Source: Mobula hypostoma
Lineage: Eukaryota
DNA: 64,000 nucleotides
Direction: 5' to 3'
NCBI RefSeq assembly: GCF_963921235.1
Contig: NC_086108.1
Coordinates: forward strand, 57,724,001-57,788,000
Part shown: piece by piece, positions 13,426-63,263 of the stretch
Layout of the letters: every line of letters begins with the position of its first letter
How positions within the stretch are numbered: the first letter of the stretch is position 1
Position numbers and translations under genes: made by a program
The notes under the pieces: model-generated
Told to the model about the DNA's origin: nothing
The model's input: only the letters and a program-made list of their open reading frames with translations
Databases searched by the model: none

Positions 13426-13612
13426 AATTGCTAAGATTATCTGAGGTGTTGCAAGAACTGAAATCCGCTAATTGATGATTGAAACGTGAGGTCTGAAGAA
13501 TCGTGACTTTATTCGCTGGCATTAAGGAAGTGCTGAGTAAGAGGTATACTTTGTTGTGTTTAGACAGCCATGAAACAGGAACAATGATACCTGGCCATGT
13601 CTTCAGCGTATA

Positions 13613-14986
<1,374 letters not shown>

Positions 14987-19996: not shown

Positions 19997-21940
19997 GGTG
20001 CACCATCTCCCCCATCCTATTTATTACGAGAATGAACCTCCTATTATCAGCAGCAGAAAATGTGACCCGTGGCCCAACACTGGAGTCGGGCATTGTTCAG
20101 CCGGCTCTACGAGGGTTCATGGACGACATCACTATAACGACTGTGTCACATGTCCAAGCAAGATGGGTATTGAAAACCCTGGGCAATGTAGCCACTTGGG
20201 CGAGGATGTCTCAAGGCCAAGAAGTCCAGGTGCATGGTGATCAGAAAGGACAAAGTTACTAGCACGCTTAGCCTCCAAGTTCAGGGTGAGGTCATCCCTT
20301 CCATCGAAGATAACCCGATAAAATGCTTGGGGAAGTGGTTTAATGTATCACTGACAGATGGGGCCAAGGTCACCAATGCTGTGAAGCAGACAGACGATCG
20401 ACAAATCCGCACTTCTGGGTAAATTCAAGACCTGGCTGTATACGGCATTCTGCCCAGGCTTCTCTGGCTCTTCACACTTTATGAGTTCCCCATGACTGCT
20501 GTAGAGGGCATCGAGAGGAAAACCAACAAGCACCTGCAGAGATGGTTGGGAGTTCCCCCAAGCTTCTCTTCAGTGGACCTCTACATTCATTCCTGGCAAC
20601 TGCAGCTTCCCCTGTCATCTGTTTTGGAGGAATTCAAGGTGGCAAAATGCAGAGCCTTGTTAAGCTTGAGAGATTCCAATGATGTCTTGGTAAAGCAAGC
20701 AGGCGTTACAACCAGATCTGGGCACAAGTGGGCAGCCAATGCAGCTGTGGAGGAGGCAGTGTGTTCTCTGAAGCTGCGAGATATCATCGGCAATCCCTGC
20801 GTCAGGTGGCAAGGCCTCGGCTCAGTTCACTTCCAGAAGTGGGGAAACGCAAGCATAAGGAACAGGCGAGACATGATACAGGCAGAAGTACGGATCCGTG
20901 AGGAAGAGAAGTGGATTTCAAAAGCAGTGGAACAAGGGTCCCAGGGTGCCTGGACAAAATGGGATCTGCCTAAGCGCATGATCTCATGGGCAGAATTATG
21001 GAGACTGGAGCCCTCCCGTATTTCCTTCCTCTTGCGATCCGTGTATGACACCCTTCCTTCACCACTACATCTGTACACATGGGGAATGAGAGAGGACCTG
21101 TACTGTAAGCTCTGTGGTCAAAAGGGGACACTGGCTCATATACTGTCCGGGTGTAAAACAGCTCTAACTCAAGGACAGTATAGGTGGTGCCATGATAAGG
21201 TGCTTCTGGCTCTTGCTGACACACTAGAGCGGGAGAGATGCAAGAAGAGTCTGGCTGGCACAGATTTGAGGAAGGCCATCACCTTCATCAAAGGAGGAGC
21301 TAGGCCTTTCGTAACCAAACAAGCAAAGTTCAATCTGCTGCTAATGGCCACACCCTGGGAGATGAGGGTTGATGTGGGAAGGAGGTTGCAGTTCCCGGAT
21401 GTGGTGCACACAACCCTACGCCCGGACATTGTACTGTGGTCAGCCGAAGACAAGAAAATAATTCTGGTTGAGCTGACTGTGCCATAGGAGGAGGGATGGG
21501 AAGAGTCGCACAAGAGAAAGGCCTTGAAGTACCAGCCCTTAGTGCAGGAGTGTAAAGACAAGGGATGGCAGGCATGGTTGTTCCCTGTAGAGATCGACTG
21601 CAGAGGTCTCCCAGCCAAATCAGCATGGTGGTTGTTGTCAGATCTGGGCCTGGACGAAAGGAGCGACAAACAGGCAGCTTGTAGGATGGGGGAAGAGGCA
21701 GAACAAGCCTCTTGTTGGATTTGGAGTAGGTGAGAGGAGGGAAGCTGGAAGCCAGGAGCAGATGGGCAGAGATTTGGCCGCCACTGCCGGCCCACCAACT
21801 GAAGAGTGTCGTGGTTAAGGGTCGAAATACTCGGTGAAGGTTGGGAACCACTTGATGACATCTGCTCCTGGCTGAAGGCTACAGTTACCTTATAAGGTAA
21901 CTGGAGAATGCACCCTAACAGGTGTTTGTAACAAGCACAC
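19997..21940 (+). mobile_element. 5'-truncated non-LTR retrotransposon with restriction-like endonuclease (Hero/NeSL/R2 group, Hero-like)
   Basis: GCTISP and RGFMDD (RT); CKLCGQKGTLAHILSGC zinc knuckle; HDKVL; LRPDIVLWSAEDKKIILVELTVP (PD-(D/E)xK); ORF 20492-21487 is 331 aa; premature stop at 21485-21487. Confidence 0.88.
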
Positions 21941-22713: not shown

Positions 22714-22955
22714 ATGGGATCTTGCAGATGCTGGAAATCCTGAGCAGCACACACAAAATGATGGAGAAACACAGCAGGTCAGGCAGCATCTATGGAGAGG
22801 AATAACCCAGAAGAGGAATAAGGGGGACGAAGCCTGCATAAGAAGGCTTCTTTCCCTTGCTTTCCAGTGCTGATGAAGGGTCCTGGACTGAAATGTTAAT
22901 TATATTCCTTTCCGCAGATGCCTGCTGAGTTCCTCCAGCATTTTGTGTGTGGCAC
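22714..22955. mobile_element. Two Penelope pseudo-LTR termini in inverted orientation
   Basis: TGCAGATGCTGGAAAT...CACACACAAAATG...GGCAGCATC (minus-oriented end), then CTGATGAAGGGTC...CTGCTGAGTTCCTCCAGCATTTTGTGTGT (plus-oriented end). Confidence 0.7.
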
Positions 22956-26910: not shown

Positions 26911-27010
26911 GCAACACACACACAAAATGCTGGAGGAACCCAGGCCAGGCAGCATCCATGGAAAAGAGTAAATAGTTGACATTTCAAGCCGAGACACTTA
27001 CATCAGTCCT
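26911..27010 (-). mobile_element. Penelope pseudo-LTR fragment with degenerate hammerhead motif
   Basis: Reverse strand reads GACTGATGTAAGTGTCTCGGCTTGAAATGTCAACT...CTCCAGCATTTTGTGTGT. Confidence 0.65.
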
Positions 27011-27954
27011 GCAGATTTTCTTGTGTTTGTGTCCTCCTTTCCGATATTCCTCTACAGCCTTTGTAAGATATCCTTTACCAGGTAGGCTGTGGAGGATGTT
27101 ACCTTTCCCCCTAATTATAGAGTTATATTTATCACTATCGTGTTTCTGTTCTGCTCTTCCCTCAACTATAGACAGCCTTCAGATCCCTGTTGGACTGCTT
27201 TATTGGTTCCCCACTCTCCAGTTACCCTAGTCTTCACAAGTAGGGAGTACCGATATTTGTGAGACAGGACCTCATGCCCCACTTCCTGTGAAGCCCTATT
27301 ACACAGTTGCTTTTTTTTAAACCATTATATGCTTCCTGTTTTTGAACCCTGTTTTCTCCTTTGGGGTGTTACAGTGCAAAAATGTTCCAGAGTTATTTCC
27401 CAGCTCGTGTGTGGGAGTATCTCTGCTTTGATCCGCAGATGTAGCCTAACCTGCTGTGATCCTCCAGCATTTTGTATGTGTTTCTCTGATAGCATGCCAG
27501 CCCAATGGGTTGGAGACATCTCTTCAAACATGTTTGCTCAGGATGATCATCCATATATTGTGTGTACTGCAGTCCTGACAAAAAACCTGTCTTGCAATCA
27601 CTTAGACCAGTTTTATTAATTTAATCTGTTGACGTCTTTAGTCAATTATTAGTTAAAACAGCTTATGTGTAGTTTTGCTATAAATTTATTTTAAAGCCAC
27701 CACCCTAGTTTTAAAAAGAAACGTGATACTTTCCAGCCAGTCACAGACAGCTACCCAGTGTCATCACTCCAGGAGTTGCTTTCTTGATGATCTTAAAACC
27801 AGAACTTTCTCTTTAGTTTTCAGAGCCACCCTGTACCAAGCTGCTTCTAAACTCTCATGTTTTAATCTGTTATTTCTCGCCCTCCCCCTCCCCCTCCCCC
27901 TCCCCCCCCCAACTATATTAGAACTTAGAGAGCCTTTCTTTCCTGTATTACCTG

Positions 27955-30442: not shown

Positions 30443-31726
30443 CTACTTTACTTTATACTTTATTGTCGCCAGACAATTGATACTAGAACATACAATCATC
30501 ACAGCGATATTTGATTCTGTGCTTCCCGCTCCCTGGATTACAAATATTAAACATTAAAAATAGTAAAAGTTAGTAAATATAAAAATTTAAATTATAAATC
30601 ATAAATAGAAAATAGAAAAACAGGAAGTAAGGTAGTGCAAAAAAAACCAAGAGGCAGGTCCGGATATTTGGAGGGTAGGCCCAGATCTGGGTCAGGATCC
30701 GTTCAGCAGTCTTATCACAGTTGGAAAGAAGCTGTTCCCAAATCTGGCCGTACGAGTCTTCAAGCTCCTGAGCCTTCTCCCCGCAGGAAGAGGGACGAAA
30801 AGTGTGTTGGCTGGGTGGGTCGTGTCCTTGATTATCCTGGCAGCACTGCTCCGATAGCATGTGGTGTAAAGTGAGTCCACGGACGGAAGATTGGTTTGTG
30901 TGACGTGCTGCGCCGTGTTCATGATCTTCTGCAGCTTCTTTCGGACTTGGACAGGGCAACTTCCATACCAGATTGTGATGCACCCTAGAAGAATGCTTTC
31001 TACGGTGCATCTATAAAAATTAGTGAGGGTTTTAGGGGACAGGCCAAATTTCTTTAGTTTTCTCAAGAAGTAAAGGCGCTGGTGGGCCTTCTTGGCAGTG
31101 AGCTCTGCTTGGTTGGACCAAGTCAGGTCATTTGTGATATTGACCCTGAGGAACTTAAAGATTTTTACCTTTTCCACTTGTGCACCACCAACATAAATTG
31201 GGTCGTGCGGTCCGCTACTCCTTCTGAAGTCAACAACCAATTCCTTCGTCTTGCTGACCCAGGTCTTCGCACCATGCCACGAGGTTCTTAATTTCCTCTC
31301 TGTACTCAAACTTATCATTACCTGAGATATGGCCTACAATCGTTGTGTCATCAGCAAACTTATATATTGAGTTCGATGGAAACTTGGCTATGCAATCATG
31401 GGTGTACAGTGAGTACAGCAGGGGGCTGAGTACACAGCCTTGTGGGGCACCGGTGCTCAGAGTGATTGTGGAAGAGAGCTTGTCCCCTATTTTTACAGTC
31501 TGGGTCCTGTCTGTGAGGAAGTTGAAGATCCAGCTGCAGATCTGAGTGATAAGGCCCAGGTTCTGGAGCTTAGGAATCAGTTTATTTGGAATGATGGTAT
31601 TAAAGGCAGAGCTGTAGTCAATGAAAAGGAGCCTTACGTATGCGTCTTTATTCTTCAGGTGTTCTAAGGAGGAATGTAGGGCCAGAGAGATGGCATCTGC
31701 CATTGACCTGTTGCTCTGGTAGGCAA
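30443..31726 (-). mobile_element. Young 5'-truncated Rex1/Babar LINE
   Basis: ORFs 31230-31748 ([44 protein letters not shown]) and 30692-31318 joined by one frameshift; (TACTT)n-like tail at 30443-30465. Confidence 0.92.
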
Positions 31727-33079
31727 CATACTGTACTTCTTTAGCCACAGCAATATAATGAGGGAGACTCCATGATCATTGCTGTGGCTAAAGATGTATG
31801 AAGTATTAAAGGACTGTAGCCCCTGCAGTTTGCTACCCCTCCGGATGGTCTCTACTACTTCACTGCAACAATATGGTTATGATTCTGTTCAGTACTTTTA
31901 AAGAGGATCTTGAATGACTATGTCTGCAGAACCGAGAATGTGCAAACTGGATTTTGTAGATCTCACATTCAAAATAGACTTGCCTAAAAACTTTGTATAT
32001 TGTAACTACCTGCATCCAGTCGAGTGTGTTTCTTTGGGATAATGAGAAAGAGTGCGTAGAAGTGTGGATGAGAGAATGAAGCTGCTTGGGCAGAGATATA
32101 TTGCAGTTCTTGTGATGTAAAATTCTTATAACTATCCTTCATGCTGATTTTCATGACCCATTTTCTTCTGCCTTCTTTGTGACATAGCTCAGTAGTTTAG
32201 AGAAAGGTTAAAGAGATGCTAGCACATTAAGCAGCCCCAAAGACAGTTATTTTGTATGTCTGACTGCCTTTGTTTGCTGGTGTTTTTCCATTCTCAAACC
32301 ATTAAATCAACAAACAGCATTGGATACTGACATTTTGCTTTTCAGAGATTCCACAGTTTTATAGAATATTTGGGAATCCATTATCAGTTGCCCGAGTTTT
32401 GTTCTGAATTTGATCTCTTTCCCTGTGAGAGATAAGACCAGGAAATTGCGGAGAAGGATGCTAAATATTTAATTGAAGAGTTTGACACACTCTATATAAT
32501 GAACAAAAGACAGATGAAGTGTGTTTTGGATATGTTGAAGCAGATGGCACCGGATAGGGGAGGGAGTCAGAGGGTGAAAGTGCTTTTTTGATCCATTGCC
32601 AAGTATAGACCATTCGCTGGTTTTGTACCTCAGTGTTCACATTTCCACCTTTTCTAAACCTAATTTAAGGCTGATTAATCAGAGATGTTAACTGTTTCTT
32701 TTCTACAGATCCCACCTGACCTGATCAACAGTTGAGCCTTTTAGTTTTATTACACTTTTACAGGATCCATAATATTTTTTCCTGTGGTTATCATGATTAT
32801 GTACGTATTAGAACTCCTTCATGTCAAAGAATTAGTTAATTCTTTAGAAATCTGATAATGATGTTTTCCATGAATTTCGTGCTCCTGACTCCAAATAATG
32901 CTTCCAACTTGAAATACAAAAGTTGCAGGAGATCATTCAGACCAAGTTCCCAAAATATGATCCTGCTCCTCCGATTTTTTGCTTCCCATCCTGAACTTCT
33001 AAATCCAGTGATGCTGTTTGTCCAAGTGGCCATTCACATGTGACAAACAGATTGAGGACAAGAGGAAATTGAAGCTGAG

Positions 33080-35990
33080 TCAGATTTATCATCACTGAGA
33101 AGCATGATGTGAATTTCTTTGTGTTGTGGCTGCAGTACAGTATAAAGACATAATTACAAAATATAATGTTAAAAAAAGGAATAACAAGGAATTCAAGTGT
33201 CAAGAAAATGTATCTCAAGGTTGGATATGGTGATATGTAAATGTACTTTGATAACAAATTTACTTTGAACTTTGTGTATATGGATTGTTTAGAAATCAGA
33301 AGGAAGAAGCTTTTCCTAAATTGTTGTTGTGGGTCTTCAGGCTTCTGTACTTCTCTGATGGTAGTGACATGAAGTGGACATGCCCTGTTGGTCATAGTGA
33401 TTGAGGCATCGCCTCTTGGAGATGTCCTCAGTGGTGGGGATGGTTGTGCCTGTGATGGGTCTGGCTAAATCTACAATCTCTTGCTGTCTCTTGTGACCAT
33501 GTACATTGGGATCTCCGTACCAGACTGTGATGCAACCAGTCAGAATGCTTACCAGCATACATCTGTGCAAATTTGTACATGACTTTGGTGACACACCAAA
33601 CCTCCTCAAACTCCTAACAAAGTAGAGTTGCGGCTCTGCTGCCTTCATGATTGTATCATTGTGTTGGCCCAGGATAATTCCTCTCAGATGTTGACGCATG
33701 GGAACTTGAAGCTGCTCACCTTTTCCGTCATCTATCCCACAATAGGGCCGGTGTGTGTTTATTCTATTTTCTATTTTTATTTTTATTTTTATTTAGAGAT
33801 ACAGCATGGAATAGGCCCTTCCTGCCCTATGAGTTGCTCTACCCAGCAACGCCGGACAACTCTGATTTAATCACGGGACAATTTACAGTGAGCAATTAAT
33901 GTAGCCACTGAGTCTTTGGACTGTGGGAGGAAACCAGAGCACTTAGGGAAATCCCATGCATTCTCTCAATTTTCCCTTCCTGAAATCCACAGTCAGTTCC
34001 TTGGTCTTGCGATGTTGAATGTAAGGTTACTGTTGTCACACCACTCAACCAGCCGATCTATCTCACTCCAGTATGCTGCCTTGTCACCATCTGAGATCTT
34101 ACCAACAACAGTCATATCATCTGTGAACATATGTATGGTATTTCAGCTGGGCTTAGTCACACAGTCACGAGTGCAGAGAGCGTAGAGCAATGGGCCAAGC
34201 ATGCACCTTTGAGGTGTGCTTGTGTTGATCGACAGTGTGGAAGAAATGTTATTATCAATCCATACTGACTTCAGTTTCCCAATAAGGGCGTTGATGATCC
34301 AGTTGCAGAGCAAGGTACAGAGGTCCAGGTTTTCAAGCTTGGTGATTAAAACTGAAGGGATGATGGTGTGGAATGTTGACCTGTACTAACTGTAAATAAC
34401 AGATTGATGCATGTTTTGCTGTTGTTTAAGTTACCCCAAATCAGAGTGAAAAGCTAGTGTGATTGCATCCACTGTGGGTCTGTTGTGGTGATACGGAAAA
34501 TTGCAGCAGGTCTGGACTTCTTACTCAAGCAGGAGTTAATGACCAATCTCTCAAAGCACTTCATCACAGTAGTTATTGAGTTAGCTCACACTGTTCTTTT
34601 GAGGGCACCGGAATGAGTGCTGTCCTTTTGAAGCAGGTGGGGACCTCAGGCTGCTGCAGTAAGAGGTTGAAGTTGCCTTTGAACACCCAGCCAGTTGATC
34701 AGTGCAGTTTTTCAGTATCCAGCAAGGTACTCCATCAGGGCCTGATGCCTTGTGAGGGTTCACTCTCTTGTAGGATATTCTGACACCAGCCTCTGTGACA
34801 GGGATCACAGGATTGCTGGATGCCTTGGGGATTCATACAAGTGTGGTGTAATTCTCTTTTCAGAATCTGCATAAATAGCGTTGAGCTTATTGGGGAGGGA
34901 AGCACCACTGACATTTATGCTGTTAGGTTTCACCTTATAGGAAGTAATGTCATACAAACCCTGCCACTGCTGATATGCATCCGATTGTGTCTCTAATTTC
35001 ACAAGGAAATGCCTGTTTGATCTTATGATTGCCTTCTTTAGGATTCTGATTGCCAGAATGAATGCCACAGATCGAACTCTCGGCAGGCTGAGAATCTCCT
35101 TGGTCATTCAGGGCTTCTGATTTGGGAAAACCTGGTATGTTTTCTAAGACACAATCTATCCATGCTAGTTCTGATGAAATTGGTGAAGCTGACTTGGTGA
35201 ATATGGTCCAGTCCACTGGTTCAGAACAATCCTGTAAATGCTTCTTGACCAGGTCTTTACCACGAGTGCCGTGGTCTTCAGTCCCTGCCTATATGCAAGG
35301 ATTAGAAGTGCAGCCAAGTAACTTGTTAAAGTGTGGGTCTGGTATGGCACAATAAGTGTTTTCGATGGTGATATAAAAGCAACTGAGTGTGTTGGCTCTT
35401 CTGGTCCACAAATGATGTTGATGGTTTTGGTCAGAAACTTCTCCAAGCTAGTCTGGTTGAAGTCTCCTGCAATGACCGGGAGGAGATCAGGGTGTGGTGT
35501 CTCATGACTGCCGATATCGGTGTTAAACCCCTCCTTGACATCTGGAAGGAGTGGAATGTATGTTACTACCATGATGGCAGCAGACAGCTCCTTCAACAGG
35601 TAGAGTAGATGACACCTGATCACTAAATGTTTCAGGTCAGGGGAGAAGGAGTGAGACAGAAATGCCACATCTGTGGACCACAATGAGTTAATCGTGAAGC
35701 AAAGTCTGCCATGTTTGCCTTCACCTGATGCCACCATCCAGTTCATACAATGGATGGCAAAGCCATCAGGATATAACATTGTGTCTGGATTGCTGGACGT
35801 GAGCCTTGTCTCTATGAAGCAGAGAACACAGCTGTCCCTGATGTCCCTCTAGTACTGCACTCTTGCTCTGAGCTCCAGAGACTGTACACTAGCCAGGAGG
35901 ATAGTAGGGAAGTGAGGGAGGGGTTATCTTGGGGCCCTATCCTTTAGCTTTACCTGAAGTCTTCCATGTAGCTCTGTTTTCTGAGACAAT
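33080..35990 (-). mobile_element. Long decayed Rex1/Babar LINE including APE domain
   Basis: VIAGDFNQ (ORF 35165-35779), HKASGPDGVP, SILTGCITVWYG; family 3' tail near 33080-33300. Confidence 0.8.
33770..33965 (-). mobile_element. HE1/V-SINE fragment inserted in the Rex1/Babar copy
   Basis: TCTTTGGACTGTGGGAGGAAACC and ACAATTTACAGTGAGCAATTAA are reverse matches to the SINE at 351-625; (TTTTTA)n tail. Confidence 0.7.
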
Positions 35991-36049
35991 AGAGACCTCC
36001 TCTGAGCTTTCAGCAGAAGTTGTACTTGAAGCAAGCATGATGTTCTCCT

Positions 36050-37050
36050 CCGTTTCCTGAACATCTGCATTCACACCATCTTCTTACTGTCATAGTGATA
36101 GAGTTCCCCTTGACCTTACCTACCACCCCATCAACCTCTGCATCCAACATATCATATTCCACAACCTCCGCCATCTCCAACCTATCTTTACCTACTCACC
36201 CACCCCACCCCCCCAACTTTCCTCAGGGATCACTTTCTCTGCAATTCCCTTGTCCATTCACTAATCTCCCTCCTGGGTGCTTATCCCTGCAAGCGACCTA
36301 AATGCTACACCTGCCCACTCCCCTCCTCCCTCCCCTCCATTCAGGGCCCCAAGCAGTCCTTCCAGGTGAGGCAGTACTTCACCTGAGAATCTGCTGGGGT
36401 TACTTATTGTGCCCAGCCCTCCCGATATGGCTTCTTCTACATTGTTGAGACCAATTGTAAATTGAGGGACCGCTTTGTTGAGCTCCTCCACTCCATCCGC
36501 CACAAGCAGAACTTCCTGTTGCAAACATTTTAATTCTGATTCGCATTCCTGTTCTTGTACCAAGATTAGGCACTGTCACGGTGGAGGAGCAACAACTTTT
36601 ATTCTTTCTGGTTAGCTTCCAATCTGATGACATGAATATTGATTTCTCCAAGTTTAAAAAATAATCCCCCCCACCCCGCCTCCGCTCTTCCTCTATTCCT
36701 CACTCTGACCTTTCACCGATTCTCACCTACCAATCACTTCCTCCTGGGTCCCCTCCTCCATCCCTTTCTCTTACAGGCCACTCTCCTCTCCTATCAGATT
36801 CCTTCTTCTCCAGCCCTTGACCTTTCTCATGCACCTGGTTTCACCCGCCATCTTCCAGCTGGCCTTCTTCCCCTCCCCCCACCCTTTTATTCTGGTGTCA
36901 TCTCCTTTCCTTCTCAGTCCTGAAGAAGGGTCTAGGCCTGAAATGTCGACTCTTTATTCATTTCTACTGATGCTGCTTGACCTGTTGAGTTCCTCCAGCA
37001 TTTTGTATGTGTAGCTTTGGATCTCTAGCATCTCCGGATATTATTGTGTT
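36050..37050 (+). mobile_element. Decayed Penelope-like element 3' half with pseudo-LTR
   Basis: Colinear with 44570-45527 (CAGGGCCCCAAGCAGTCCTTCCAGGTGAGG, CTACATTGTTGAGACC, GGAGGAGCAACA). Confidence 0.85.
36916..36951 (+). ncRNA. Minimal type I hammerhead ribozyme motif
   Basis: AGTC-CTGAAGA-AGGGTCTAGGCCT-GAAA-TG-TC-GACT; catalytic core intact, stem III palindrome altered (CG>TG). Confidence 0.65.
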
Positions 37051-43794: not shown

Positions 43795-44060
43795 GGTCCG
43801 AAATAGAAATAGATAATACTGGAACTAGTCAGTCCTAGATAGTATCTGTGAGGGGGAAAAACAGAGATAACATTTCACTTTAAAGACTTTTCATCAGAAT
43901 AAGGAAAGATTAGAAAGTGAACATGCTTTAAATCGTGGAGACGGGTCGGTGAGTGGTAAATGACTGATGGAATGACTATGAGAAGGTGGAGCCAGGGTGA
44001 CACTGAATAGCAGAAGTAGTACTGTTGCAGGCTGAAAGTGAGTGATGCAAGTGTTGTAGC
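43795..44060 (-). mobile_element. Highly decayed Penelope pseudo-LTR fragment
   Basis: Reverse strand CTGATGAAAAGTCTTTAAAGTGAAATGTTATCTCTG followed by a CAGATACT...CCAGTATT remnant. Confidence 0.45.
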
Positions 44061-44559: not shown

Positions 44560-45527
44560 CCCATTTTTTCCTTTCCCCCACCCATCTTCCCTCCCCCCCT
44601 CTCTGCATTCCGCAGGGATCGCTCCCTACACAACTCCCTTGTCCATTCGTCCCCCCCATCCCTCCCCACTGATCTCCCTCCTGGCACTTATCCGTGTAAG
44701 CGGAACAAGTGCTACACATGCCCTTACACTTCCTCCCTTACCACCATTCAGGGCCCCAAACAGTCCTTCCAGGTGAGGCATCACTTCACCTGTGAGTCGA
44801 CTGGGGTGATATACTGCGTCCGGTGCTCCCGATGTGGCCTTTTATATATTGGTGAGACCCGACGCAGACTGGGAGACCGCTTTGCTGAACATCTACGCTC
44901 TGTCCGCCAGAGAAAGCAGGATCTCCCAGTGGCCACACATTTTAATTCCACATCCCATTCCCATTCTGACATGTCTATCCACGGCCTCCTCTACTGTAAA
45001 GATGAAGCCACACTCAGGTTGGAGGAACAACACCTTATATTCCGTCTGGGTAGCCTCCAACCTGATGGCATGAACATCGACTTCTCTAACTTCCGCTAGG
45101 CCCCACCTCCTCCTCGTACCCCATCTGTTACTCATTTTTATGCACACATTCTTTCTCTCACTCTCCTTTTTCTCCTTCTGTCCCTCTGAATATACCTCTT
45201 GCCCATCCTCTGGGTAACCCCCCCCCCATCTTTCTTCCCGGACCTCCTGTCCCATGATCCTCTTGCATCCCCTTTTGCCTATCACCTGTCCAGCTCTCGG
45301 CTCTATCCCTCCCCCTCCTGTCTTCTCCTATCATTTTGCATCTCCCCCTCCCCCTCCAACTTTCAAATCCCTTACTCACTCTTCCTTCAGTTAGTCCTGA
45401 TGAAGGGTCTCGGCCTGAAACGTCGACTGCGCCTCTTCCTACAGATGCTGCTTGGCCTGCTGCGTTCACCAGCAACTTTGATGTGTGTTGCTTGAATTTC
45501 CAGCATCTGCAGAATTCCTGTTGTTTG
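44560..45527 (+). mobile_element. Young Penelope-like element 3' end with uninterrupted GIY-YIG endonuclease frame and pseudo-LTR
   Basis: ORF 44548-45099: CKRNKCYTC, GVIYCVRCSRCGLLYIGETRRRLGDRFAEH, VATHFN, PDGMN; ends ...CAGCATCTGCAGAATTCCTGTTGTTTG. Confidence 0.93.
45393..45428 (+). ncRNA. Minimal type I hammerhead ribozyme motif
   Basis: AGTC-CTGATGA-AGGGTCTCGGCCT-GAAA-CG-TC-GACT; stem I AGTC/GACT, ACGT palindromic stem III, predicted cleavage after C45424. Confidence 0.8.
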
Positions 45528-45769
45528 CATTTAAACCCACCCCTTTCATGCTGTCTTGCATCTTTCTCCCTCATTCTGCATTTGTATTTTCACAATATCT
45601 GATCTTGTGTGGACATACTTTCCTTCTGTTGTGATTTGATGGTCAATATTCTCCAAACAGACTGCTGTCCCTTTCAGTGCTTTTATGTTATGTCCTTTCA
45701 TTCTTGCCCAAGCCATACTACCCCTTCTTCCCAATGACAATACTGAATTCCTGCAGAAATTATTTCTAT

Positions 45770-49949: not shown

Positions 49950-52900
49950 GGTCCTACCGGCCCCCACACTTAGTTCAGCTGTCAGTCTCTTCTAAGTACA
50001 ACAGTAATGGTTGCCAGATTTTTTCAAATTCCTTGAGTCTGTCCTTGATAACGTATCTTATCCTCTCTAGATGCAGAGTATCCATTAATGTAGCCAGCCA
50101 TTGTCTGAGTGATGGAGTTTCCTCCTTTTCCAGAACGTCAGTATGAGTTTCTTTCCATTAAGTATGCCATAGGTCAGGAGTTGTTGCTGGGTAGCCTGGA
50201 ATTTATTTCACCTCGCAGAAATTCCAGAAATTATTAAAATAGGGTCTGGTATTATCTGAACCTTTAGTACCTTCAATAGGATCTCAAATATTTGCTTCCA
50301 ATACTCTTGTATCCTGGAACATAAAGCATAACTATGCAACAAATTTGCCTCTGTGGACTTGCATTTCTCACACATTGGGGACACCTCTGGGAATATTTTA
50401 TGAATTCTTACTTTTGAATGATGTAGTCTATGTAGGATTTAAAATTGTATTGAACAATACCTGGCATTGATGGAACAGGAATTAACATACTCCAAAGCCT
50501 CATTCCATATAACCTCCTCTATCTCTGTACCCAACTCCTTTTCCCACTCTTTTTTAATATTATCCATTGTTGTATGACACTTTTTTTGTATGGCATCATA
50601 CAGATAGGCGATGATGTGTTCCGTCCCTAAACATGATCTTACATGATTATCTAATTTATCGGGTTCTGCCATCTCAAAACCAGAAAGATGTGATCTTATA
50701 TAGTGTCTTAGCTGGAGATACCTGAAAAAATAACTCTCTTGCAATCCAAATTTATCCTGGAGCTGCCGAAATGACGCAGAAGTCCCTTGTATGTATAAGT
50801 CTCCAATGCTGCATATCCCTAATTCTCGCCATGCATCAAAGGCCCCATCTATACATGAGGGGATAAAAGAGAGGTTCACTGATATAGGTACAAGAAAAGA
50901 TAATGTTCTGAGTTTCAAATGCTTCCCCATTTGTCTCCACATCTGTATGGTGCTATGGATAATGGGATTGCCTCTATAACAGGCTTTATTTAACTGAATA
51001 GGGGACATAATGATTGCCCCTATGGAATATGGTAGGCAATCCTCATGCTCCATCTCCAACCATCCGGGAAGTACAACTGTATCACCTATCCAGTATGCTA
51101 TATGGCTAAAGTTAGCAGCCCAATAATAAAAAATAAAGTTGGGTAGTGCCAGCCCCCCACTAGTCTTATTCTTGCAGAGATGTTCTCTCCTAATTCGATG
51201 GGCTTTATAATTCCATATGAAAGGTAGAATTGTCGAAACTAATCCTTTACAAAAGGTTTTGGTAAGATAGAGGGGCAGGTTCTGAATTAGATAAGGCAGT
51301 TGGGGAAGAAAGATCATCTTGACTGCATTTACTCTACCCACTAAAGAAATTGGGAGTGTCTTCCAAAATTCTATTTCTTTTTAATCTTTTCAATTAGAAG
51401 GATAAAATTTGCTTCAAATAGAGAACGATACTTTTTGGTTATTACAATTCCAAGGTAAGTAAACTTCTCAAGGGTTCTTTTGAATGGAAATTGTTTAAGC
51501 CCCTCCTGTTCTTCTACTTGGACCGGGAATAATTCACTTTTCCCCCAATTAATCTTATACCCCGAGAAAGTGCCAAATAAATTGACTATTTCTAGCAAAA
51601 CTGGTATAGTAATATATGGTTTTGTTACAAACAACCAAAACATTGTCTGCATAAAGGGAAATTTTGTTGATAGTATATTCTGTATTTACCCATAAATTTC
51701 GGGGTGAGAACGTATAGTCTCCGCCAGTGGTTCCAGGGCCAACGCAAACAATAAGGGACTTAATACACAGCCCTGTCTTGTGCCCCTGTGCAAACTGAAT
51801 GGTTCCAAGAGGGTCTGATTAATTAGTATTTTAGCACTAGGGTTACTGTATAGTAGCTTAATCTAAGTTATGAATTTGTCTCCCATTCCAAATTTTTTCA
51901 AAACCTTGTAGAGGTATTGCAATTCCACTTGGTCGAATGCTTTCTCAGTATCTAAACTTAATATTATAAGGTCTTCCTTAGGATGTCTTGGGGAGTGCAT
52001 TATATTAAGAAGGTGCCTGATGTTCTGGAAAGAATTCCTTTGAGGGATAAACCCTGTTTGATCTGAGTGTACCATTTATTTATCGGCTGACTGAGTCCCC
52101 TTGCCAATGTTTTAGCCAAAATTTTCTGATCTGAATTTAGCAGTGAAATCGGCTTATAAGGTCCTACCTCCTCTGGGTCTTTGTCCTTCTTCGGAACAAG
52201 CGTGATAATGGCCTCGTTCAGGGTTTGGGGTAACCTGCCAGTTTCAAACAACTTTCTATACATCCTTACTATATAAGGTGCTAATAAGTCACTATAATTC
52301 TTATAAACTCATTACCTATTCCGTCTGAACCTGGATGCTTGTCATTTTTCAGGGATCTTATTGTTCTTACTATTTCGTCATTTGTAATCTCTGCTCCCAA
52401 AGCCTGACACTCCGTCAGATCGAGTGAAGGTAGCCTACAAGTGTCTAGAAATGTATGCACGCTCGCCGTCAGTACATTAGATTGAGATGCATATAATTTT
52501 TCATAATACTGATGGGATCTTTGATGTCTTTATGTGACATCAAAGGAGCGCCCGAGTCTGATTTAATTTTATGAATGATCACTTTCCAATTTGTGTAACT
52601 GTCTTGCCAGCAATTTGTGCGGTCTCTCACCAAATTCAAAGAAATTCTGTTTTGTAAACACTGCTGTGTACATACATCTATTGATGCTTCTGGAAAGGCT
52701 CTGCACATCCTTTCTGAGAATATTTGGTTAAGTTTGTATTTTAATGCTGAAATTCTGTAGTATTTTTCTGCGGATGGTTGTTGCACATTCTCCATGTCTA
52801 GTTTATGTATTTGTTCTTCTAGTTCTATTTATTCTGCTTTAGTACGTTTCTTTAGGGAAGACTGAAAAGAAATTATACATCCTCTAACATAAGCTTTAAA

Positions 52901-53799: not shown

Positions 53800-55644
53800 C
53801 TGTATGATAATGTTTTTGATCTGTTCTGGGCCTTGTTAGTCGATCGGTCATTAGAAATGAATGGACCCTAAACAGCACTCTCTTACCCCTGACCCTCCCT
53901 CCCCCCACAACCCCCATCACCCTTGAAAGCTTGAAATAACCAACAAAAAAAATCCATATCTCCATTCACAAATACACCTAGTCAAAACTCTGGGAATAGC
54001 TTCTTGATCTCTAACACTTCTCTGAACCAATTTAGTAGCTCCCCAGTTACATAGATGGTCACAAAGCCAAATTTGGCATCAGAATGAAAAAACTGAGAAA
54101 AACTAGCAAACAGAGATTATCGAGATGTTAAAGTAAGTGTGATTCTCAAAGCTATAACTTACTCTTGCACCAGCAAGTCTAGCACCATTAACAACATACT
54201 CTTCATACAACACCAGTTTAGACCAACTCTTATTGCTATCTATGCACTCATAGGGCCTTAATCCGACACAGTACAATCCAAATATAGAGTGGCATCAAAG
54301 GTTTGGGCACCCCTGCTCAAAATTTCTGTTACTGTGAATAGCTAAGCGAGTAAAAGATGAACTGATTTCCAAAAAGCATAAAATTAAAGATGTCACATTT
54401 ATTTAATATTTTGAGCAAGAAAACTTATTTATTTCCATCTTTTACAGTTTCAAAATAACAAAAAAGGAAAAGGGCCGGAAGCAAATGTTTGGGCACCCTG
54501 CATGGCAGTACTTAGTAACACCCACCTTGGCAAGTATCACAGCTTGTAAATACTTTTTGTAGCCAGCTAAGAGTATTTCAATTCTTGTTCGGGGGATTTT
54601 CGCCCATTCTTCCTTGCAAAAGGCTTCTAGTTCTGCGAGATTCTTGGGCCGTCTTGCATGCACTGCTCTTTTGAGGTCTATCCACAGATTCTCGATGATG
54701 TTTAGCTCAGGGGACTATGAGGGCCATGGCAAAACCTTCAGCTTGTGTCTCTTGAGGTAGTCCATTGTGGATTTTGAGGTGTGTTTAGGTTCGTTATCCT
54801 ATTGTAGAAGCCATCCCCTTTCCAACGGGACATCAACTGTCTCGACTTCACCGCACCTTGTTCCAATTCCAACCTCACTCCTTCCAAACGCTCTGCTCTC
54901 CACTCCCTCCACACTAATCCTAACCTTACTATAAAACCCGCCGATAAGCGGGGTGCTGTTGTAGTCTGGCGTAATGACCTCTACCTTGCCGAGGCTCAGC
55001 GACAACTCACGGATACCTCCTCTTACTTAACCCTCGATCATGACCCCACTAAGGAGCACCAGGCCATTGTCTCCCACACTATCACCAACTTTATCCGCTC
55101 AGGGGATCTCCTATCCACTGCTACCAACCTTATAGTTCCCACACCCTGCACTTCCCGTTTCTACCTCCTACCCAAGATCCACAAACCTGCTTGTCCAGGT
55201 AGATCCATTGTCTCAGCTTGCTCCTGCCCCACTGAACTCATTTCTGCATACCTTGACACGGTTTTATCACCCCTTGTTCAATCCCTTCCTACCTATGTTC
55301 ATGACATTCTCATGCTCTGAAACTTTTCGATGATTTTAAGTTTCCTGGCCCCCACTGCTTTATTTTCACCGTGGATGTCCAGTCCCTATATACTTCCATC
55401 CCCCATCAGGAAGGTCTCAAAGCTCTACGCTTTTTGGATTCCGGACCTAACCAGTTCCCCTCTACCACCACTCTGCTTCATCTAGCGAAATTAGTCCTTA
55501 CTCTTAATCATTTCTCCTTTGGCTCCTCCCATGTCCTCCAAACTAAAGGTGTAGCTATGGGCACCCATATGGGTCCTAGCTATGCCTGCCTTTTTGTTGG
55601 CTTTGTGGAAGAATCTATGTTCCAAACCTATTCTGGTATCTGTC

Positions 55645-56173
55645 AACACACATAAAAGTTGCTGGTGAACGCAGCAGGCCAGGCGGCATCTCTAGGAAGA
55701 GGTGCAGTCGACGTTTCAGGCCGAGACCCTTCGTCAGGACTAACTGAAGGAAGAGTGAGTAAGGGATTTGAAAGTTGGAGGGGGAGGGGGAGATCCAAAA
55801 TGATAGGAGAAGACAGGAGGGGGAGGGATGGAGCCAAGAGCTGGACAGGTGATAGGCAAAAGAGATACGAGAGGATCATGGGACAGGAGGTCCGGGAAGA
55901 AAGACGGGGGCGGGGGGGGGACCCAGAGGATGGGCAAGGGGTATATTCAGATATTCAGAGGGACAGAGGGAGAAAAAGGAGAGTGAGAGAAAGAATGTGT
56001 GTATAAAAATAAGTAACAGATGGGGTACGAGGGGGAGGTGGGGCATTAGCAGAAGTTAGAGAAGTCGATGTTCATGCCATCAGGTTGGAGGCTACCCAGA
56101 CAGAATATAAGGTGTTGTTCCTCCAACATGAATGTGGCTTCATCTTTACAGTAGAGGAGGCCGTGGATAGACA
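55645..56173 (-). mobile_element. Inverted Penelope 3' end/pseudo-LTR inserted in the RT just before RYIDD
   Basis: Reverse complement of about 44970-45490; TGTC on both sides (55641-55644 and 56174-56177). Confidence 0.88.
55706..55741 (-). ncRNA. Minimal type I hammerhead ribozyme motif
   Basis: Minus strand AGTC-CTGACGA-AGGGTCTCGGCCT-GAAA-CG-TC-GACT, core intact. Confidence 0.8.
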
Positions 56174-57160
56174 TGTCCCCCACTTTTCCTTCGCTACATC
56201 GACGACTGCTTTGGCACTGCTTCCTGCATGCATGCTGAGCTCGTTGACTTCATTAACTTTGCTTCCAACTTTCACCCTGCCCTCAAGTTTACTTGGTCCA
56301 TTTCTGACACCTCCCTCCCCTTTCTAGATCTTTCTGTCTCTATCTCTGGAGACAGCTTATCTACTGATGTTTACTATAAGCCTACTGACTCTCACAGCTA
56401 TCTGGACTATTCCTCTTCTCACCCTGTCTCTTGCAAAAATGCCATCCCTTTCTCACAATTCCTCCGTCTCCGCCGCATCTGCTCTCAGGATGAGGCTTTT
56501 CATTCCAGGACGAGGAAAATGTCCTCTTTTTTTTTAAAGAAAGGGGCTTCCCTTCCTCCACCATCAACCCTGCTCTCAAACACGTCTCCCCCATTTCATG
56601 CACATCTGCTCTCACTCCATCCTCCTGCCACCCCACTAGGAATGGGGTTCCCCTTGTCCTCACCTACCACTCCACCAGCCTCTGGGTCCGACATATAATT
56701 CTCCGTAACTTCCGCCACCTCCAATGGGATCCCACCACTAAGCACATCTTTCCCTTCCCCCCCCCTGCTTTCTGCAGGGATCGCTCCCTACGCAACTCCC
56801 TTGTCCATTCGTCCCCCCCATCCCTCCCCACTGATCTCCCTCCTGACACATCCTTGTAAGTGGAACAAGTGCTACACATGCCCTTACACTTCCTCCCTCA
56901 CCACCATTCAGGGCCCCAGACAGTCCTTCCAGGTGAGGCGACGCTTCACCTGTGAGTCGGCTGGGGTGATAACTGTGTCCGGTGCCCCCGATGCAGCCTT
57001 CTATATATTGGTGAGACCCGACGCAGACTGGGAATCGTTTCGCTGAACACCTACGCTCTGTCCGCCAGAGAAAGCAGGATCTCTCAGTGGCCACACATTT
57101 TAATTCCACGTCCCATTCCCATTCTGATATGTCTATCCACGGCCTCCTCTACTGTAAAGA

Positions 57161-59481
57161 ATAGACAATAGGTGCAGTAGGCCATTCGGCCATTCGAGCC
57201 AGCACAGCCATTCACGGTGATCATGGCTGATCATCCACAATCTGTATCCAGTTCCTGCCTTATCCCCATAAGCTTTGATTCTGCTATCTTTAAGAGCTCT
57301 ATCCATCTTTTTTGAAAGCATCCAGAGACTTGGCCTCCACAGCCTTCTGGAGCAGAGCATTCCATATATCCACCACTCTCTGGGTGAAAACGTTTTTCCT
57401 CAACTCCATTCTAAATGGCCTACCCCTAATTCTTAAACTGTGGCCTCTGGTTCTGGACTCACCCATCAGCGGGAATGTGCTTCCTGCTTGCAGCGTGTCC
57501 AATCCCTTAATAATCTTATATGTTTCAATAAGATCCCCTCTCAGCCTTCTAAATTCCAAAGCATACAAGCCCAGTCGCTCCAATCTTTCAACATATGACA
57601 GTCCCGCCATCCCGGGAATTAACCTTGTGAACCTACGCTGCACTCCCTCAATAGCAAGAATGTCCTTCCTCAAATTTGGAGACCAAAACTGCACACAGTA
57701 CTCCAGGTGTGGTCTCACCAGGGCCCTGTACAGCTGCAGAAGGACCTCTTTGCTCTTATACTCAATTCCCCTTGTTATGAAGGCCAGCATGCCATTAGCT
57801 TTCTTCACTGCCTGCTGTACTTGCATGCTTGTTTTCAGTGACTGATGTACAAGAACACCTAGATCCCGTTGTGCTTCCCCTTTTCCTAACTTGACTCCAT
57901 TTAGATCATAATCTGCCTTCCTGTTCTTACCATCAAAGTGGATAACCTCACATCTATCTGCATCTACCATGCATCTGCCCACTCACCCACCCTGTCCAAG
58001 TCACCCTGCATTCTCATAACATCCTCCTCACATTTCTCACTGCCTCCCGGCTTTGTGTCATCGGCATATTTGCTAATGTTACTTTTAATTCCCTCATCTA
58101 AATCATTAATACATATTGTAAACAGCTGCGGTCCCAGCACTGAACCCTGTGGTGCCCCACTGGTCACGGCCTGCCATTCCGAAAGGGACCCGTTAATCGC
58201 TACTCTTTGTTTTCGGTCAGCCAGCCTATTTTCAATCCATGTCAGTACTCTGCCCCCAATACCATGTGCCCTAATTTTGCCCACTAATCTTCTATGTGGG
58301 ACTTTATCAAAGGCCTTCTGAAAGTCCAGGTACACTACATCCACTGGCTCTCCCTTGTCTATTTTCATAGTTACATCCTCAAAAAATTCCAGAAGATTAG
58401 TTAAGCACGATTTCCCCTTTGTAAATCCATGCTGACAATCCTGTTACTACTATCCAGATGTGTCGTAATTTCATCTTTTATAATTGACTCCAGCATCTTT
58501 CCCACCACCGTCGTCAGGCTAATGGGTCTATAATTCCCTGTTTTCTCTCTTCCTCCCTTCTTGAAGAGAGGGACAACATTAGCCACCCTCCAATACACAG
58601 GAACTGATCCTGAATCTATAAAACATTGGAAAATGATTACCAATGTGTTCACAATTTCTAAAGCCACCTCCTTAAGTACCCTGGGTTGCAGACCATCAGG
58701 TCCCGGAGACTTATCAGCCTTCAGACCCAACAGCCTATCCAACACCATTTCCTGCCTAATATAAATTTCCTTCAATTCATCCATTACCCTAGGTCTTTTG
58801 ACCACTATCACATCTGGGAGATTGTTTGTGTCTTCCCTAGTGAAGACAGATCCAAAGTATCTGTTCAACTCGTCTGCCATTTCCTTGTTCCCCATAATAA
58901 TTTCACCCACTTCTGTCTTCAAGGGCCCAGTTTTGGTCTTAACTATTTTTTTCCTTTCCACATACCTAAACAAGCTTTTACTACCCTCCTTTATATTCTT
59001 GGCTAGTTTACCTTCGTACCTCATTTTTTCTCCACGTATTGCCTTTTTAGTTACCTTCTGTTGCGCTTTAAAAGTTTCCCAATCCTCCAGCTTCCCACTC
59101 GTCTTTGCTATGTTATAATTCTTCTCTTTTAGTTTTATACTGTCCATTACTTCCCTTGTCAGCCACGGCCTCCCCTTACTCCCCTTAGGATCTTTCTTCC
59201 TCTTTGGAATGAACTGATCCTGCATCTTCCACATTATTCCCAGAAACACTTGCCATTGCTGTTCCACTGTCATCCCTGCTAGGGTATTGTTTCATTGAAC
59301 TTTGGCCAGCTCCTCCCTCATAGCACCATAGTTCCCTTTGTTCAACTGTAATACTGACACTTCCGAGTTTCCCTTCTCCCTCTCAAATTGTAGATTAAAA
59401 CTTATCATATTATGGTCACTACCTCCTAATGGCTCCTTTACCTCGAGGTCCCTGATCAAACCCGATTCATTGCACAGATGA
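57161..59481 (-). mobile_element. Young 5'-truncated CR1 inserted in the Penelope endonuclease region
   Basis: ORFs 58401-59273, 57964-58368 and 57299-57982 (KSPGPDG, NYRPISL, YLDFQKAFDKVPH, YADDTK, RPHLEYCVQFW); TCTATTG tail; AAAGA at 57156-57160 and 59482-59486. Confidence 0.93.
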
Positions 59482-59880
59482 AAAGATGAAGCCACACTCA
59501 GGTTGGAGGAACAACACCTTATATTCCGTCTGGGTAGCCTCCAACCTGATGACATGAACATTGACTTCTCAAAGTTCTGCTAATGCCCCACCTCCCCCTC
59601 GTACCCCATCTTATTTATTTATATACACACATTCTTTCTCTCACTCGCCTTTTTCTCCCTCTGTCCCTTTCACTATACCCCTTGCCCATCCTCTGGGCTT
59701 TCCCTCCCTCCCCCTTTTCCTTCTCCCTGGGCCTCCTGTCCCATGATCCTCTCATATCCCTTTTGCCAATCACCCGTCCAGCTCTTGGCTCCATCCCTCC
59801 CCCTCCTGTCTTCTCCTATCATTTTGGATCTCCCGCTCTCCCTCCCACTTTCAAATCTCTTACTAGCTCTTCTTTCATTT

Positions 59881-59916
59881 AGTCCTGATGTAGGGTCTCG
59901 GCCTGAAACGTCGACT
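59881..59916 (+). ncRNA. Hammerhead motif with core mutation (CTGATGT)
   Basis: AGTC-CTGATGT-AGGGTCTCGGCCT-GAAA-CG-TC-GACT; the conserved last A of CUGANGA is replaced by T. Confidence 0.6.
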
Positions 59917-60609
59917 GTACCTCTTCCTAGAGATGCTGCCTGGCCTGCTGCGTTCACCAGCAACTTTTATGTGTGTTGCTTGAAATTCCAGCATCTGCAG
60001 ATTTCCTCGTGTTTGCCCTTTTCATCTTTGGCTTTTTTACAGATGGTGTGTTGTTTGCTTCCAGAATTTGCTGGTATTTGATTGAATTAATTCTTCCCTC
60101 TACCAGTAAATGTTTCCCGTGCCACTGGCTGCAACACAAGCCCAAAGCATGATCGATCCACCCCCGTGCTTAACAGTTGGAGAGGGGTTCGTTTCATGAA
60201 ATTCTGCACCCTTTTCTCTCCAAAGATACCTTTGCTCATTGCAGCCAAAAAGTTCTATTTTAACTTCAGCAGTCCACAGGACTTGATTCCAAAATGCACC
60301 AGGCTTGTTTAGATGTTCCTTTGAACTTTTTGAATAGAACTTTTCTTGCTTAAAATATTAAAGAAATGTGCCATCTTTCACTTTATACCCTTTGGAAATC
60401 AGTTCATTTTTTACTTAGCTATTCACAGTAACAGAAATTTTGACCGGGGTGCCCAAACTTTTGCATGCCACTGTAACTCAAAGAATCCTGTTTTCTATAG
60501 GAATTAGAGACAGGGCCTCATTAATGTTCGAAATGTTCACAATTGCCTACCGCAGAGTTTTACTTGGGGCATCTTTATTCTGTAAGGGGTTTTTTCTCAC
60601 TGTGCGCAG

Positions 60610-61586
60610 TCACTTGTCAGCATTTCCAAAATGATGTTCTGTATACCAGCGAGCTTCTTCTGGATCTGTAAACACCACCTCGGTTCCATTAATTGTCACT
60701 CGTAGTTTAGCGGGATAGAGGAGGCCAAACTTGAGTCCGGGTCTATCCCGCAGCAACCTCCTGACCAGTGTGAAAGCTGCATGTCGTTTAGCCACCGTGG
60801 ATGGAACATCTCTGAAGATCTGAATCCTTTGTCCTTGATATTGTAGATTCTTGGTACCTATCGCCTTCCACATTATATCTTCAAACACATGGCAGTAATG
60901 GATCCTCACGATCAGGTGTCGTGGCGGCTCGTCGTCCCCCGGGCGGGTCCGAAGTGCTCTATGTGCTCGGTCTATCACCGGAGCTTCTTCCAGGTTTAGA
61001 ACTTCTTTTGGCATCTGTGCCGCGAAACCTCTTGTCTTCTGCCCATTTTCCTGCCCCTCTCGTAGGCCCGCAATTCTCAGATTCTGTCGTTTCAAACGCC
61101 CCTCTAAATCCAGGCATATTTCAGAAAGTTGTTCAACTTGCCCACAAAGTTGTTTCACCTTGCTTTCCAGCTCCACAACTATGTCCGAAGCTCCATTAGC
61201 TGACTCTGCTATCTCTTTCAGAGTTTGATCCTGTGTATTCAGCTGGGCCTTCAATGCGGTAATTGCAGCATCACTTTCCGCTTCCAACACAGCAATTTCA
61301 CTTCTCAAAGAGACTGCTACCTCTGCAACTTTTTCTTCAATTTTCTTACAAATGTCTGACTTCACCTTAGCTCTGCATGTAACGACTCTATGGCCACCGA
61401 CACCGCATTGTTGTCCATACTCTGTGCACGTGGTTCCACGTGACCCTCACTCGTGAGCTCCGAGGTGTCAATTGAGCCCGTTTCTTCGCTCATCTCTACC
61501 TTAGCCGTTCCTCTTCTCGGCATTTTGTAGTGCACTCCTTCACTCTTTCTCCTTCTGGTATGTATTGAAGAGCACCTCCCCTTCAT
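60610..61586 (-). pseudogene. L1 ORF1p (coiled coil + RRM/CTD), one frameshift near 61365
   Basis: DLEGRLKRQNLRIAGLREG, IDRAHRAL, PPRHLIVR, FGLLYPAKLRVT. Confidence 0.9.
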
Positions 61587-62038: not shown

Positions 62039-63196
62039 AGATTCAAAAACGATTCAAAAGATTCAAAAAACTTCATTCTAACCGTACGTCAGCTCTGCAG
62101 GGCAGAATGAGACAGCGTTTCCCAGGAGCAGTGCGATCATAATATAACAAACGCAGAAACACAACAGCCACATGTCAGTTAAAATCAAGTTATAAGTGTC
62201 CAAAGCAGAGTCAGGTAGAGCAGCTATTTAGCAGTCTGACTGCCTGTGGGAGGAAGCTGTTTAGTAGTCTTGTGGTTTTAGTTTTGATGCTCCTGTAACG
62301 TTTGCCTAATGGTAGAAGAACAAACAATTCATGGAGAGGGTGTGAGGGGTCTTTAATGATGTACCGTGTCTTCTGGAGGCATTGACTCTGAAAGAGGTCT
62401 TGAACAGAAGGTAGGGAGACCCCAGTAACCTTCTCTGCTCTCCTAACCACCCTCTGCAAGGCTTTTTTGTCAACAGCACTGCAGCTGGAGTACCAGGTTG
62501 TGATGCAAAAGGTCAGCACACTCTCAACCACGCCTCTGTAGAATGTAGTTAAGATGTTAGTGGGGAGTGATGCTTGTTTAAGCTCCCTCAGAAAGTGCAA
62601 TCTCTGCTGGGCCCGATTCACAATCCCAGTGGTGTTCCTGGACCAAGTGAGATTGTCCGAGATCTCCACCCCAAGGAACTTGATGTTTTCCACTCTCTCC
62701 ACGGTGGAGCCACTGATGCTGAGGGGTGTGTGCTCAGGCTGAGACCGTCTGAAATCAATGATCATCTCCTTGGTTTTGGTGACGTTAAGCATTAAGTTGT
62801 TATCCCTGCACCAACTCTCTAGGCGTTTGACCTCCTCCCTGTACATTGTTTCATAATTTTTGCTGATGAGCCCCATCACTGTGGTATCGTCTGCAAATTT
62901 AATGATCAGGTCCTCCTTGAATCTGGCTGCACAGTCATGTGTGAGCAGTGTAAACAACAATGGGCTAAGCACACAGCCTTGTGGGAATCCAGTGCTCAGT
63001 GTGATGGAGTCAGAGATGTTCCTGCCAACACGGACCGACTGTGGTCTCTCTGTCAAGAAATCCAGAATCCAGCGGCACATGGCAGTGTTAAGGCCAAGCA
63101 GCGACAGTTTCTCCATTAGTCTCTGCGGGATGATGGTATTGAACGCTGAACTGAAATCAATGTACAGGATTCTGGCATAAGTGTCTTTGTTGTCAG
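62039..63196 (-). mobile_element. Young 5'-truncated Rex1/Babar LINE with uninterrupted RT C-terminal ORF
   Basis: ORF 62211-63116 (301 aa): [47 protein letters not shown]; (GATTCAAAA)n tail. Confidence 0.92.
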
Positions 63197-63263
63197 AGTG
63201 AGAGAGCTAAACAATATTAGTTGGAAGTTTACGTACAATTGTTTGATCTTACAAGTGGCAGCT

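Follow-up and report, generated by a model that had tools for sequence, protein, structure and literature searches.

Minimal hammerhead ribozymes in the pseudo-LTRs (pLTRs) of metazoan Penelope-like elements were described by Cervera and de la Pena in 2014 (PMC4209133), whose accessible text reports monomers to be inactive and dimers to have low activity, proposes a role in the trimming of precursor RNA, and presents a highly conserved G10.1-C11.1 pair as a typical trait rather than as a rule of the descriptor. For the anole lizard, the available portions of Frangieh et al. (2024, PMC11167929) describe cleavage by the motif as dependent on the element's protein, name uncut RNA as the main template, and place the start of reverse transcription at two internal sites, which define the tail; in the excerpts at hand, a tail of 30-40 bp is given both there and by Craig et al. 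(2021, PMC8557442). The latter excerpts also set out how the Neptune clade is recognized, namely by a reverse transcriptase (RT) followed by a C-terminal GIY-YIG endonuclease (EN), with a CX2-5CxxC linker between RT and EN.

In this work, we analysed a 64,000-nt stretch of the Mobula hypostoma genome (the window), for which an original prediction had listed seven 36-nt hammerhead motifs at different stages of decay. Verified directly in the letters of the window, all seven stand with their positions and strands, and so does their grading into two intact, one near-intact, one core-mutated and three degenerate copies (Table 1). In both intact motifs (45393 and 55706), a 4-bp stem I is followed by CUGANGA, one extra A between positions 9 and 10.1, stem II with three pairs and one U.G pair, GAAA, the ACGU segment without loop 3, palindromic at 15.2-16.2, and then C17 and the closing strand of stem I. 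This anatomy matches the minimal type I hammerhead in the accessible text of PMC4209133, and C17 of the 45393 copy is position 45424, where it had originally been placed.

A minimal-hammerhead descriptor is passed by three of the seven motifs, compared with a mean of 0.01 hits and a maximum of 1 across 200 dinucleotide shuffles of the window, and all nine other CTGANGA...GAAA matches in the window fail it. A profile HMM built from 40 copies outside the window recovers all seven, six of them at E 6e-16 or better and the 43866 copy only at the weaker value given in Table 1; the same profile has no matches in the reversed window and adds three pieces without a complete motif that had previously been missed, at 22752-22804 (minus strand), 27431-27476 and 32675-32724 (both plus strand). 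The Rfam search that had been proposed as a check did not find the motif: a scan of the window at E up to 10 gave five weak matches, none of them a hammerhead, so that a genuine motif, and with it the entire class in this DNA, escapes Rfam. The seven motifs are confirmed, all within reach of the family profile, and the catch made from the letters was correct.

Table 1. Hammerhead motifs, the insertions that carry two of them, and the upstream tract, in window coordinates.
Feature	Position	Strand	Remarks
5'-truncated Neptune-type copy	44587..45528	+	Linker zinc finger, GIY-YIG end (stop at 45099), 3' UTR, hammerhead, tail
Upstream CCUUCAG tract, decoy hairpin	45384..45390	+	Predicted pairing with the catalytic core in the young form, in the lowest-energy folds in context
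Hammerhead motif, intact, minimal type I, young subfamily	45393..45428	+	U at 11.1 is 45416; predicted cut 3' of C45424
Older 5'-truncated copy, RT middle to tail	54822..60016	+	Interrupted by 55644-56177 and a LINE at about 57161-59478
Hammerhead motif, intact, minimal	55706..55741	-	Within the younger antisense insertion 55644-56177
Hammerhead motif, core-mutated (A9 to U)	59881..59916	+	3' end of the 54822-60016 copy
Hammerhead motif, near-intact (U at 15.2), older related family	36916..36951	+	Passes the descriptor
Decayed motif, older family	22866..22901	+	Stems disrupted, core letters retained; tail piece in inverted orientation at 22752-22804
Decayed motif, older family	26975..27010	-	Core reads CUGAUGU; 5' strand of stem I lost at the junction with an inverted tail piece
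Strongly decayed motif, weakest of the seven	43866..43901	-	Core letters kept, stems broken; profile E 1.8e-4

The motifs had been assigned to Penelope pseudo-LTRs, of which one half holds. Their Penelope-like origin stands, with the end of a GIY-YIG ORF lying 293 nt upstream of the 45393 motif; the paired pLTRs do not, as all seven motifs are 3' ends of separate, 5'-truncated insertions, and none lies in a full element with two pseudo-LTRs when the window is compared with a natural unit, that of locus L104. Three motifs (45393, 55706 and 59881) belong to a young family and four (36916, 22866, 26975 and 43866) to older related families. The copy that ends beyond the 45393 motif is 97.5% identical to the L104 unit and has 12 mismatches in 944 positions to the nearest of 53 long matches; the GIY-YIG domain in its frame scores above the cut-off of Pfam PF01541 as a window fragment.

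The older copy that ends beyond the 59881 motif aligns, by blastn and tblastn, with positions 1174-2000, 1997-2988 and 2981-3512 of the L104 unit, and the 55644-56177 insertion within its RT is a younger antisense copy with a short tail and a 4-bp duplication. A reading of 55706 and 59881 as the two arms of one insertion was rejected, because their subfamily letters differ and because 55644-56177 breaks the RT with that duplication; the two are separate insertions. The older copy itself had landed in a Tc1/mariner-type element, and the LINE and 55644-56177 came later. This DNA transposon is present twice in the window (13609-14988, and 54283-54824 with 60018-60475), with TA-flanked CAGT ends, a DDE_3 fragment at 13839-14294 and long inverted parts, and since the second copy is split by the 54822-60016 insertion, the first shows the empty site. 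The LINE fragment (57161-59478, minus strand), which we take to be CR1-like, carries RVT_1 and interrupts the GIY-YIG region of the older copy, where its insertion shows a short duplication. Further non-LTR retrotransposon fragments lie at 20423-21487, 30692-31775, 35165-35848, 50439-51380, 60610-61446 and 62211-63206; they include zf-RVT, and RVT_1 with ALKBH8_N, and some are presumably the ends of L1-like ORF1 and ORF2. No host exon was recognized among the window ORFs of at least 150 aa.

Among the older families, the 36916 motif is found downstream of a decayed thumb/GIY-YIG region (35956-36658; tblastn, 46-57% amino-acid identity), and the 22866, 26975 and 43866 motifs stand as isolated 3' ends that are not preceded by any convincing trace of the ORF, the 1.5 kb upstream of 22866 having no ORF homology. 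Self-comparison of the window shows the copies to be dispersed, three of them with ORF remains upstream, which sets aside a non-LTR retrozyme, as this would need a short tandem array with one hammerhead per unit and no ORF. The solo copies in the window are likely inert passengers.

Full copies of the parent element exist elsewhere in the genome. A search of its 3.48 Gb with 159 residues of the window endonuclease gave 202,833 candidates, and the 150 best scorers that were assessed, which are not a random sample, are without exception 100% identical to the window's endonuclease, with open frames of up to 1,043 codons. Among 12 long-frame loci examined, L103 and L104 are full partial tandems, each with a 1,016-aa ORF and a hammerhead in each direct repeat; the unit is 3.5 kb long, and the motifs in both loci lie about 3.5 kb apart. 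The direct repeats of L103 and L104 measure 611 and 1,456 bp, at 98.5% and 99.3% identity, respectively, and six other long-frame loci have inverted arms that are 98.6-99.7% alike. Because these flanking repeats are 98.5-99.7% identical, the proposal that the retroelement was recently active is supported; the figure speaks to past bursts and not to present activity. Within the full copies, the motif flanks the ORF on both sides: on one, the predicted cut precedes the ATG by 138 nt, and on the other, the motif follows the stop codon at a distance of about 290 nt.

The 1,016-aa protein has DKG, YIDD and a CX4CxxC linker, and then a GIY-YIG domain with an internal CxxC between GVIY and YIG; Pfam matches to the full protein (RVT_1, E 3.3e-5; GIY-YIG, E 0.001) are both under the curated cut-offs. 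In L104 (3243-6293), a proline/serine-rich stretch at about residues 225-285 separates the N-terminal region from the RT, and in L103 (7272-9000) the full copy is followed, 600 bp further downstream, by a tandem repeat whose period is close to 30 bp. The traits of EN+ Penelope-like elements are present, namely a single ORF running from RT to a GIY-YIG domain of the CCHH kind, partial tandems, inverted arms and a tail of 30-40 bp. Judged by the criteria in the accessible text of PMC8557442, the CX4CxxC linker points to a Neptune-type parent, with Nematis, which has the linker motif too, as a formal alternative; the Penelope/Poseidon clade was rejected because it requires the linker zinc finger to be absent, and here it is present.

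The motif is abundant in this genome. Exact 31-mers with C at position 11.1 occur 7,424 times and those with U 42,847 times, giving at least 50,271 exact copies, and the reversed controls give 0. The G10.1-C11.1 pair is kept in the older of these two subfamilies and is a G.U in the dominant one, and all 35 motifs in the loci chosen by protein carry U (one locus having been fetched twice). The median divergence of the flanks from their group's commonest letters, taken from the first 30 loci of each subfamily and from copies with 80 nt or more, is 5.3% for the C group (27 copies) and 2.8% for the U group (24 copies), and the two groups also differ at 28 other diagnostic columns. In contigs of four other runs, C accounts for 19, 27, 18 and 82% of the depth at 11.1. 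Taken together, the lower flank divergence of the U group, the U in every protein-chosen locus and the C shares of the four runs indicate that U11.1 is probably a derived feature that marks the latest burst. Mere scattered CpG decay was rejected as its origin, as U outnumbers C by 5.8 to 1, the CpG at N7 is mostly undecayed among the matches listed, and the other diagnostic letters travel with U11.1. The 45393 copy differs by 2.8% from the letters that prevail, column by column, in the U11.1 group and by 8.7% from those that prevail in the C11.1 group, and the flanks of 59881 are nearer to the older C11.1 group (5.2% versus 9.5%). Many motif copies among the matches listed form close back-to-back pairs on opposite strands, some less than 100 nt apart (for example, L074/L075); such pairs are very short inverted insertions of motif and tail only.

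Conservation was examined in 35 mostly older-family copies, three of them misfiled young ones, chosen by a profile that spans motif, linker and tail. Their commonest letter agrees with the 45393 copy in 35 of the 36 columns of the motif, in 8 of 16 in the linker, in 27 of 36 in the tail and in 15 of 36 upstream, the last figure being confounded by truncation. Among the contigs of the four other runs, many depart from the reference precisely at 45393 and at 45427-45429, where stem I begins and ends; variable positions in these contigs are as frequent within the motif (5 in 36 nt) as outside it (26 in 255 nt), and only avoid the 11 fixed core letters. No compensatory pair changes were found between families, whose stems are identical throughout and so provide no real covariation. 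With the three misfiled copies dropped, the two-sided changes in stems I and II of the 31-32 older copies are five A-U pairs at 10.1-11.1 and one change at the next pair, which decay can produce.

Self-cleavage by the motif is a prediction. In ViennaRNA, the hammerhead fold lies 2.2 kcal/mol above the predicted monomer minimum, the probability of stem I in context is predicted at 0.06 or less, and the double hammerhead, at -9.5 kcal/mol, is much less favourable than the lowest-energy dimer fold, predicted at -28.3 kcal/mol. U11.1 is predicted to weaken helix II, at a cost of 1.6 kcal/mol, and in both subfamilies the bulged register is predicted to be more stable than the shifted register. All these predictions ignore core contacts. 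The extra C of the upstream tract is found in 23 of 25 U-group copies, compared with 11 of 24 C-group copies.

Were cut RNA copied, insertions would start at +28. Patterns for copies starting at +28, +31 and +24 gave 471, 218 and 229 matches, respectively, which, corrected for the stringency of the patterns, is an excess at +28 of about threefold, but +31 turned out to lie in a trough. A wider pattern was followed through the first 100 of its 3,231 matches, of which 10 were dropped as small indels in intact copies, leaving 90 junctions between +23 and +36, with six row pairs representing the same insertion twice. On a strict reading, +28 is the commonest position (16 of 90, p 0.0006 against a flat spread); with CpG decay allowed, it holds 9 (p 0.19), with 9-12 at five other positions, so that the cut site does not stand out as a clean peak among these 5' junctions. 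In 27 of 30 junction rows an inverted arm lies beside the junction, mostly with short shared letters, six of the same rows join stem I to its own complement, seven join at +10 via shared letters, and none runs on into the ORF. The +28 class amounts to at most about 1,350 copies, less than 3% of the intact ones.

We consider it probable that truncated copies of a young Neptune-type retrotransposon, and of older elements related to it, left the window motifs as their 3' ends, and that the motif cuts RNA weakly and only with help. A tandem transcript would hold two motifs, whose palindromic ACGU segments could pair to form a double hammerhead, probably assisted by the protein that the element encodes; cleavage 3' of GUC would then reduce the precursor to an RNA of unit length that keeps a short leader. 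With reverse transcription starting some 95 or 130 nt beyond the core, every insertion would begin by copying the motif. The 3' ends of 60 copies fall into two groups, 29 at +77 to +102 and 31 at +122 to +131, with none between and with the reference itself ending at +131, and these fit the internal starts of reverse transcription in the available portions of PMC11167929. Early termination would leave solo 3' ends, which would then decay neutrally. As a copy with a whole motif would derive from RNA that was uncut, or rejoined, at that site, cutting may be slow or partial relative to copying.

A rather unlikely alternative is that the motif persists for a function unrelated to cleavage, for example the binding of a protein or the folding of the packaging and priming region, with catalysis vestigial in the young subfamily. 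It would account for the youngest and largest subfamily lacking the G10.1-C11.1 pair and for the conservation of the adjoining tail (27 of 36 columns), and the accessible literature offers it ribozyme mutants without effect on insertion in vitro (PMC11167929) and Naiads that spread without the motif (PMC8557442). However, all 11 fixed core letters are the commonest in older families too, a G.U at 10.1-11.1 is still a pair, and the anole motif does cut according to the text available (PMC11167929). We give even less credence to efficient cutting in vivo, with scattered copies cleaving host or element RNAs in trans through their palindromes. The sheer number of intact copies and the strict count at +28 would fit, whereas the loss of that signal once CpG decay is allowed, the inverted arms at nearly all the junctions inspected, the small size of the +28 class, and the inactive monomers and weak dimers in the accessible text of PMC4209133 all speak against it.

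That the hammerhead likeness is chance is extremely improbable. Neither the empty Rfam search nor a predicted minimum that is not the hammerhead fold would surprise if it were, but three descriptor hits stand against 0.01 expected, the motif sits in the right place of the element, and the extra A, the palindromic 15.2-16.2 and the 4-bp helix I are as in the available text of PMC4209133; chance is also contradicted by the motifs in the repeats of full copies and by conservation across families. Returning to weak, assisted cutting, the change of C11.1 to U, together with a base gained in the upstream tract that would let it pair with the core, raises the speculative and doubtful prospect that the largest and latest burst came from a turned-down ribozyme, weaker cutting perhaps having favoured spread. 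If true, this burst would be a natural test of whether hammerheads burden rather than serve these elements, and the small excess of insertions at +28 could then be a fossil trace of cleavage in vivo.

The arrangement itself is not new, having been the published default for these elements since 2014. As far as the accessible text of PMC4209133 goes, the motifs described there and those of the window share the type I form, the 4-bp helix I, the extra nucleotide at 9/10.1, the missing loop 3 and the palindromic 15.2-16.2, together with one motif per pLTR about 3 kb apart, a preponderance of solo truncated copies and pairs on opposite strands. They differ in number, with at least 50,271 exact copies here versus about 4,000 in coelacanth and 9,000 in Xenopus, in a helix II of 4 bp versus 7-8 bp in the Schistosoma families, and in the U at 11.1 of the dominant subfamily versus the conserved G10.1-C11.1. 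The searchable supplement of that paper contains no shark or skate term, and the literature searched contained no dedicated report on cartilaginous fish.

With the Neptune clade, in the excerpts of PMC8557442, the element shares the order of RT and GIY-YIG, DKG, the CX2-5CxxC linker, partial tandems, inverted 5'-truncated arms and the 30-40 bp tail, a likeness that rests on motifs and architecture, Nematis also having the linker motif. PAc, an element of Anolis carolinensis, likewise has a hammerhead at the junction of pLTR and ORF and two classes of 3' ends, but it belongs to the Penelope/Poseidon clade, whereas the element here appears to be Neptune-type; in the available text (PMC11167929), the PAc ORF starts inside stem II and the cut falls 26 nt after the start codon, in contrast to a predicted cut 138 nt before the first in-element ATG here. 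Non-LTR retrozymes (bioRxiv 10.64898/2026.07.22.740005) also carry type I hammerheads related to those of Penelope-like pLTRs, and the accessible part of that report includes one chondrichthyan; they are short head-to-tail arrays without an ORF, whereas the window copies are dispersed ends of an ORF-bearing element. Against this background, what the present analysis adds is the number of copies, the assignment to a Neptune-type element, the young copies that are intact, and the U11.1 subfamily. With full copies still intact, insertions in the tens of thousands and two natural helix II variants, C11.1 the older and U11.1 the younger, this young family is a good system in which to test whether such minimal motifs cut in vivo and whether they benefit or harm the element that carries them.
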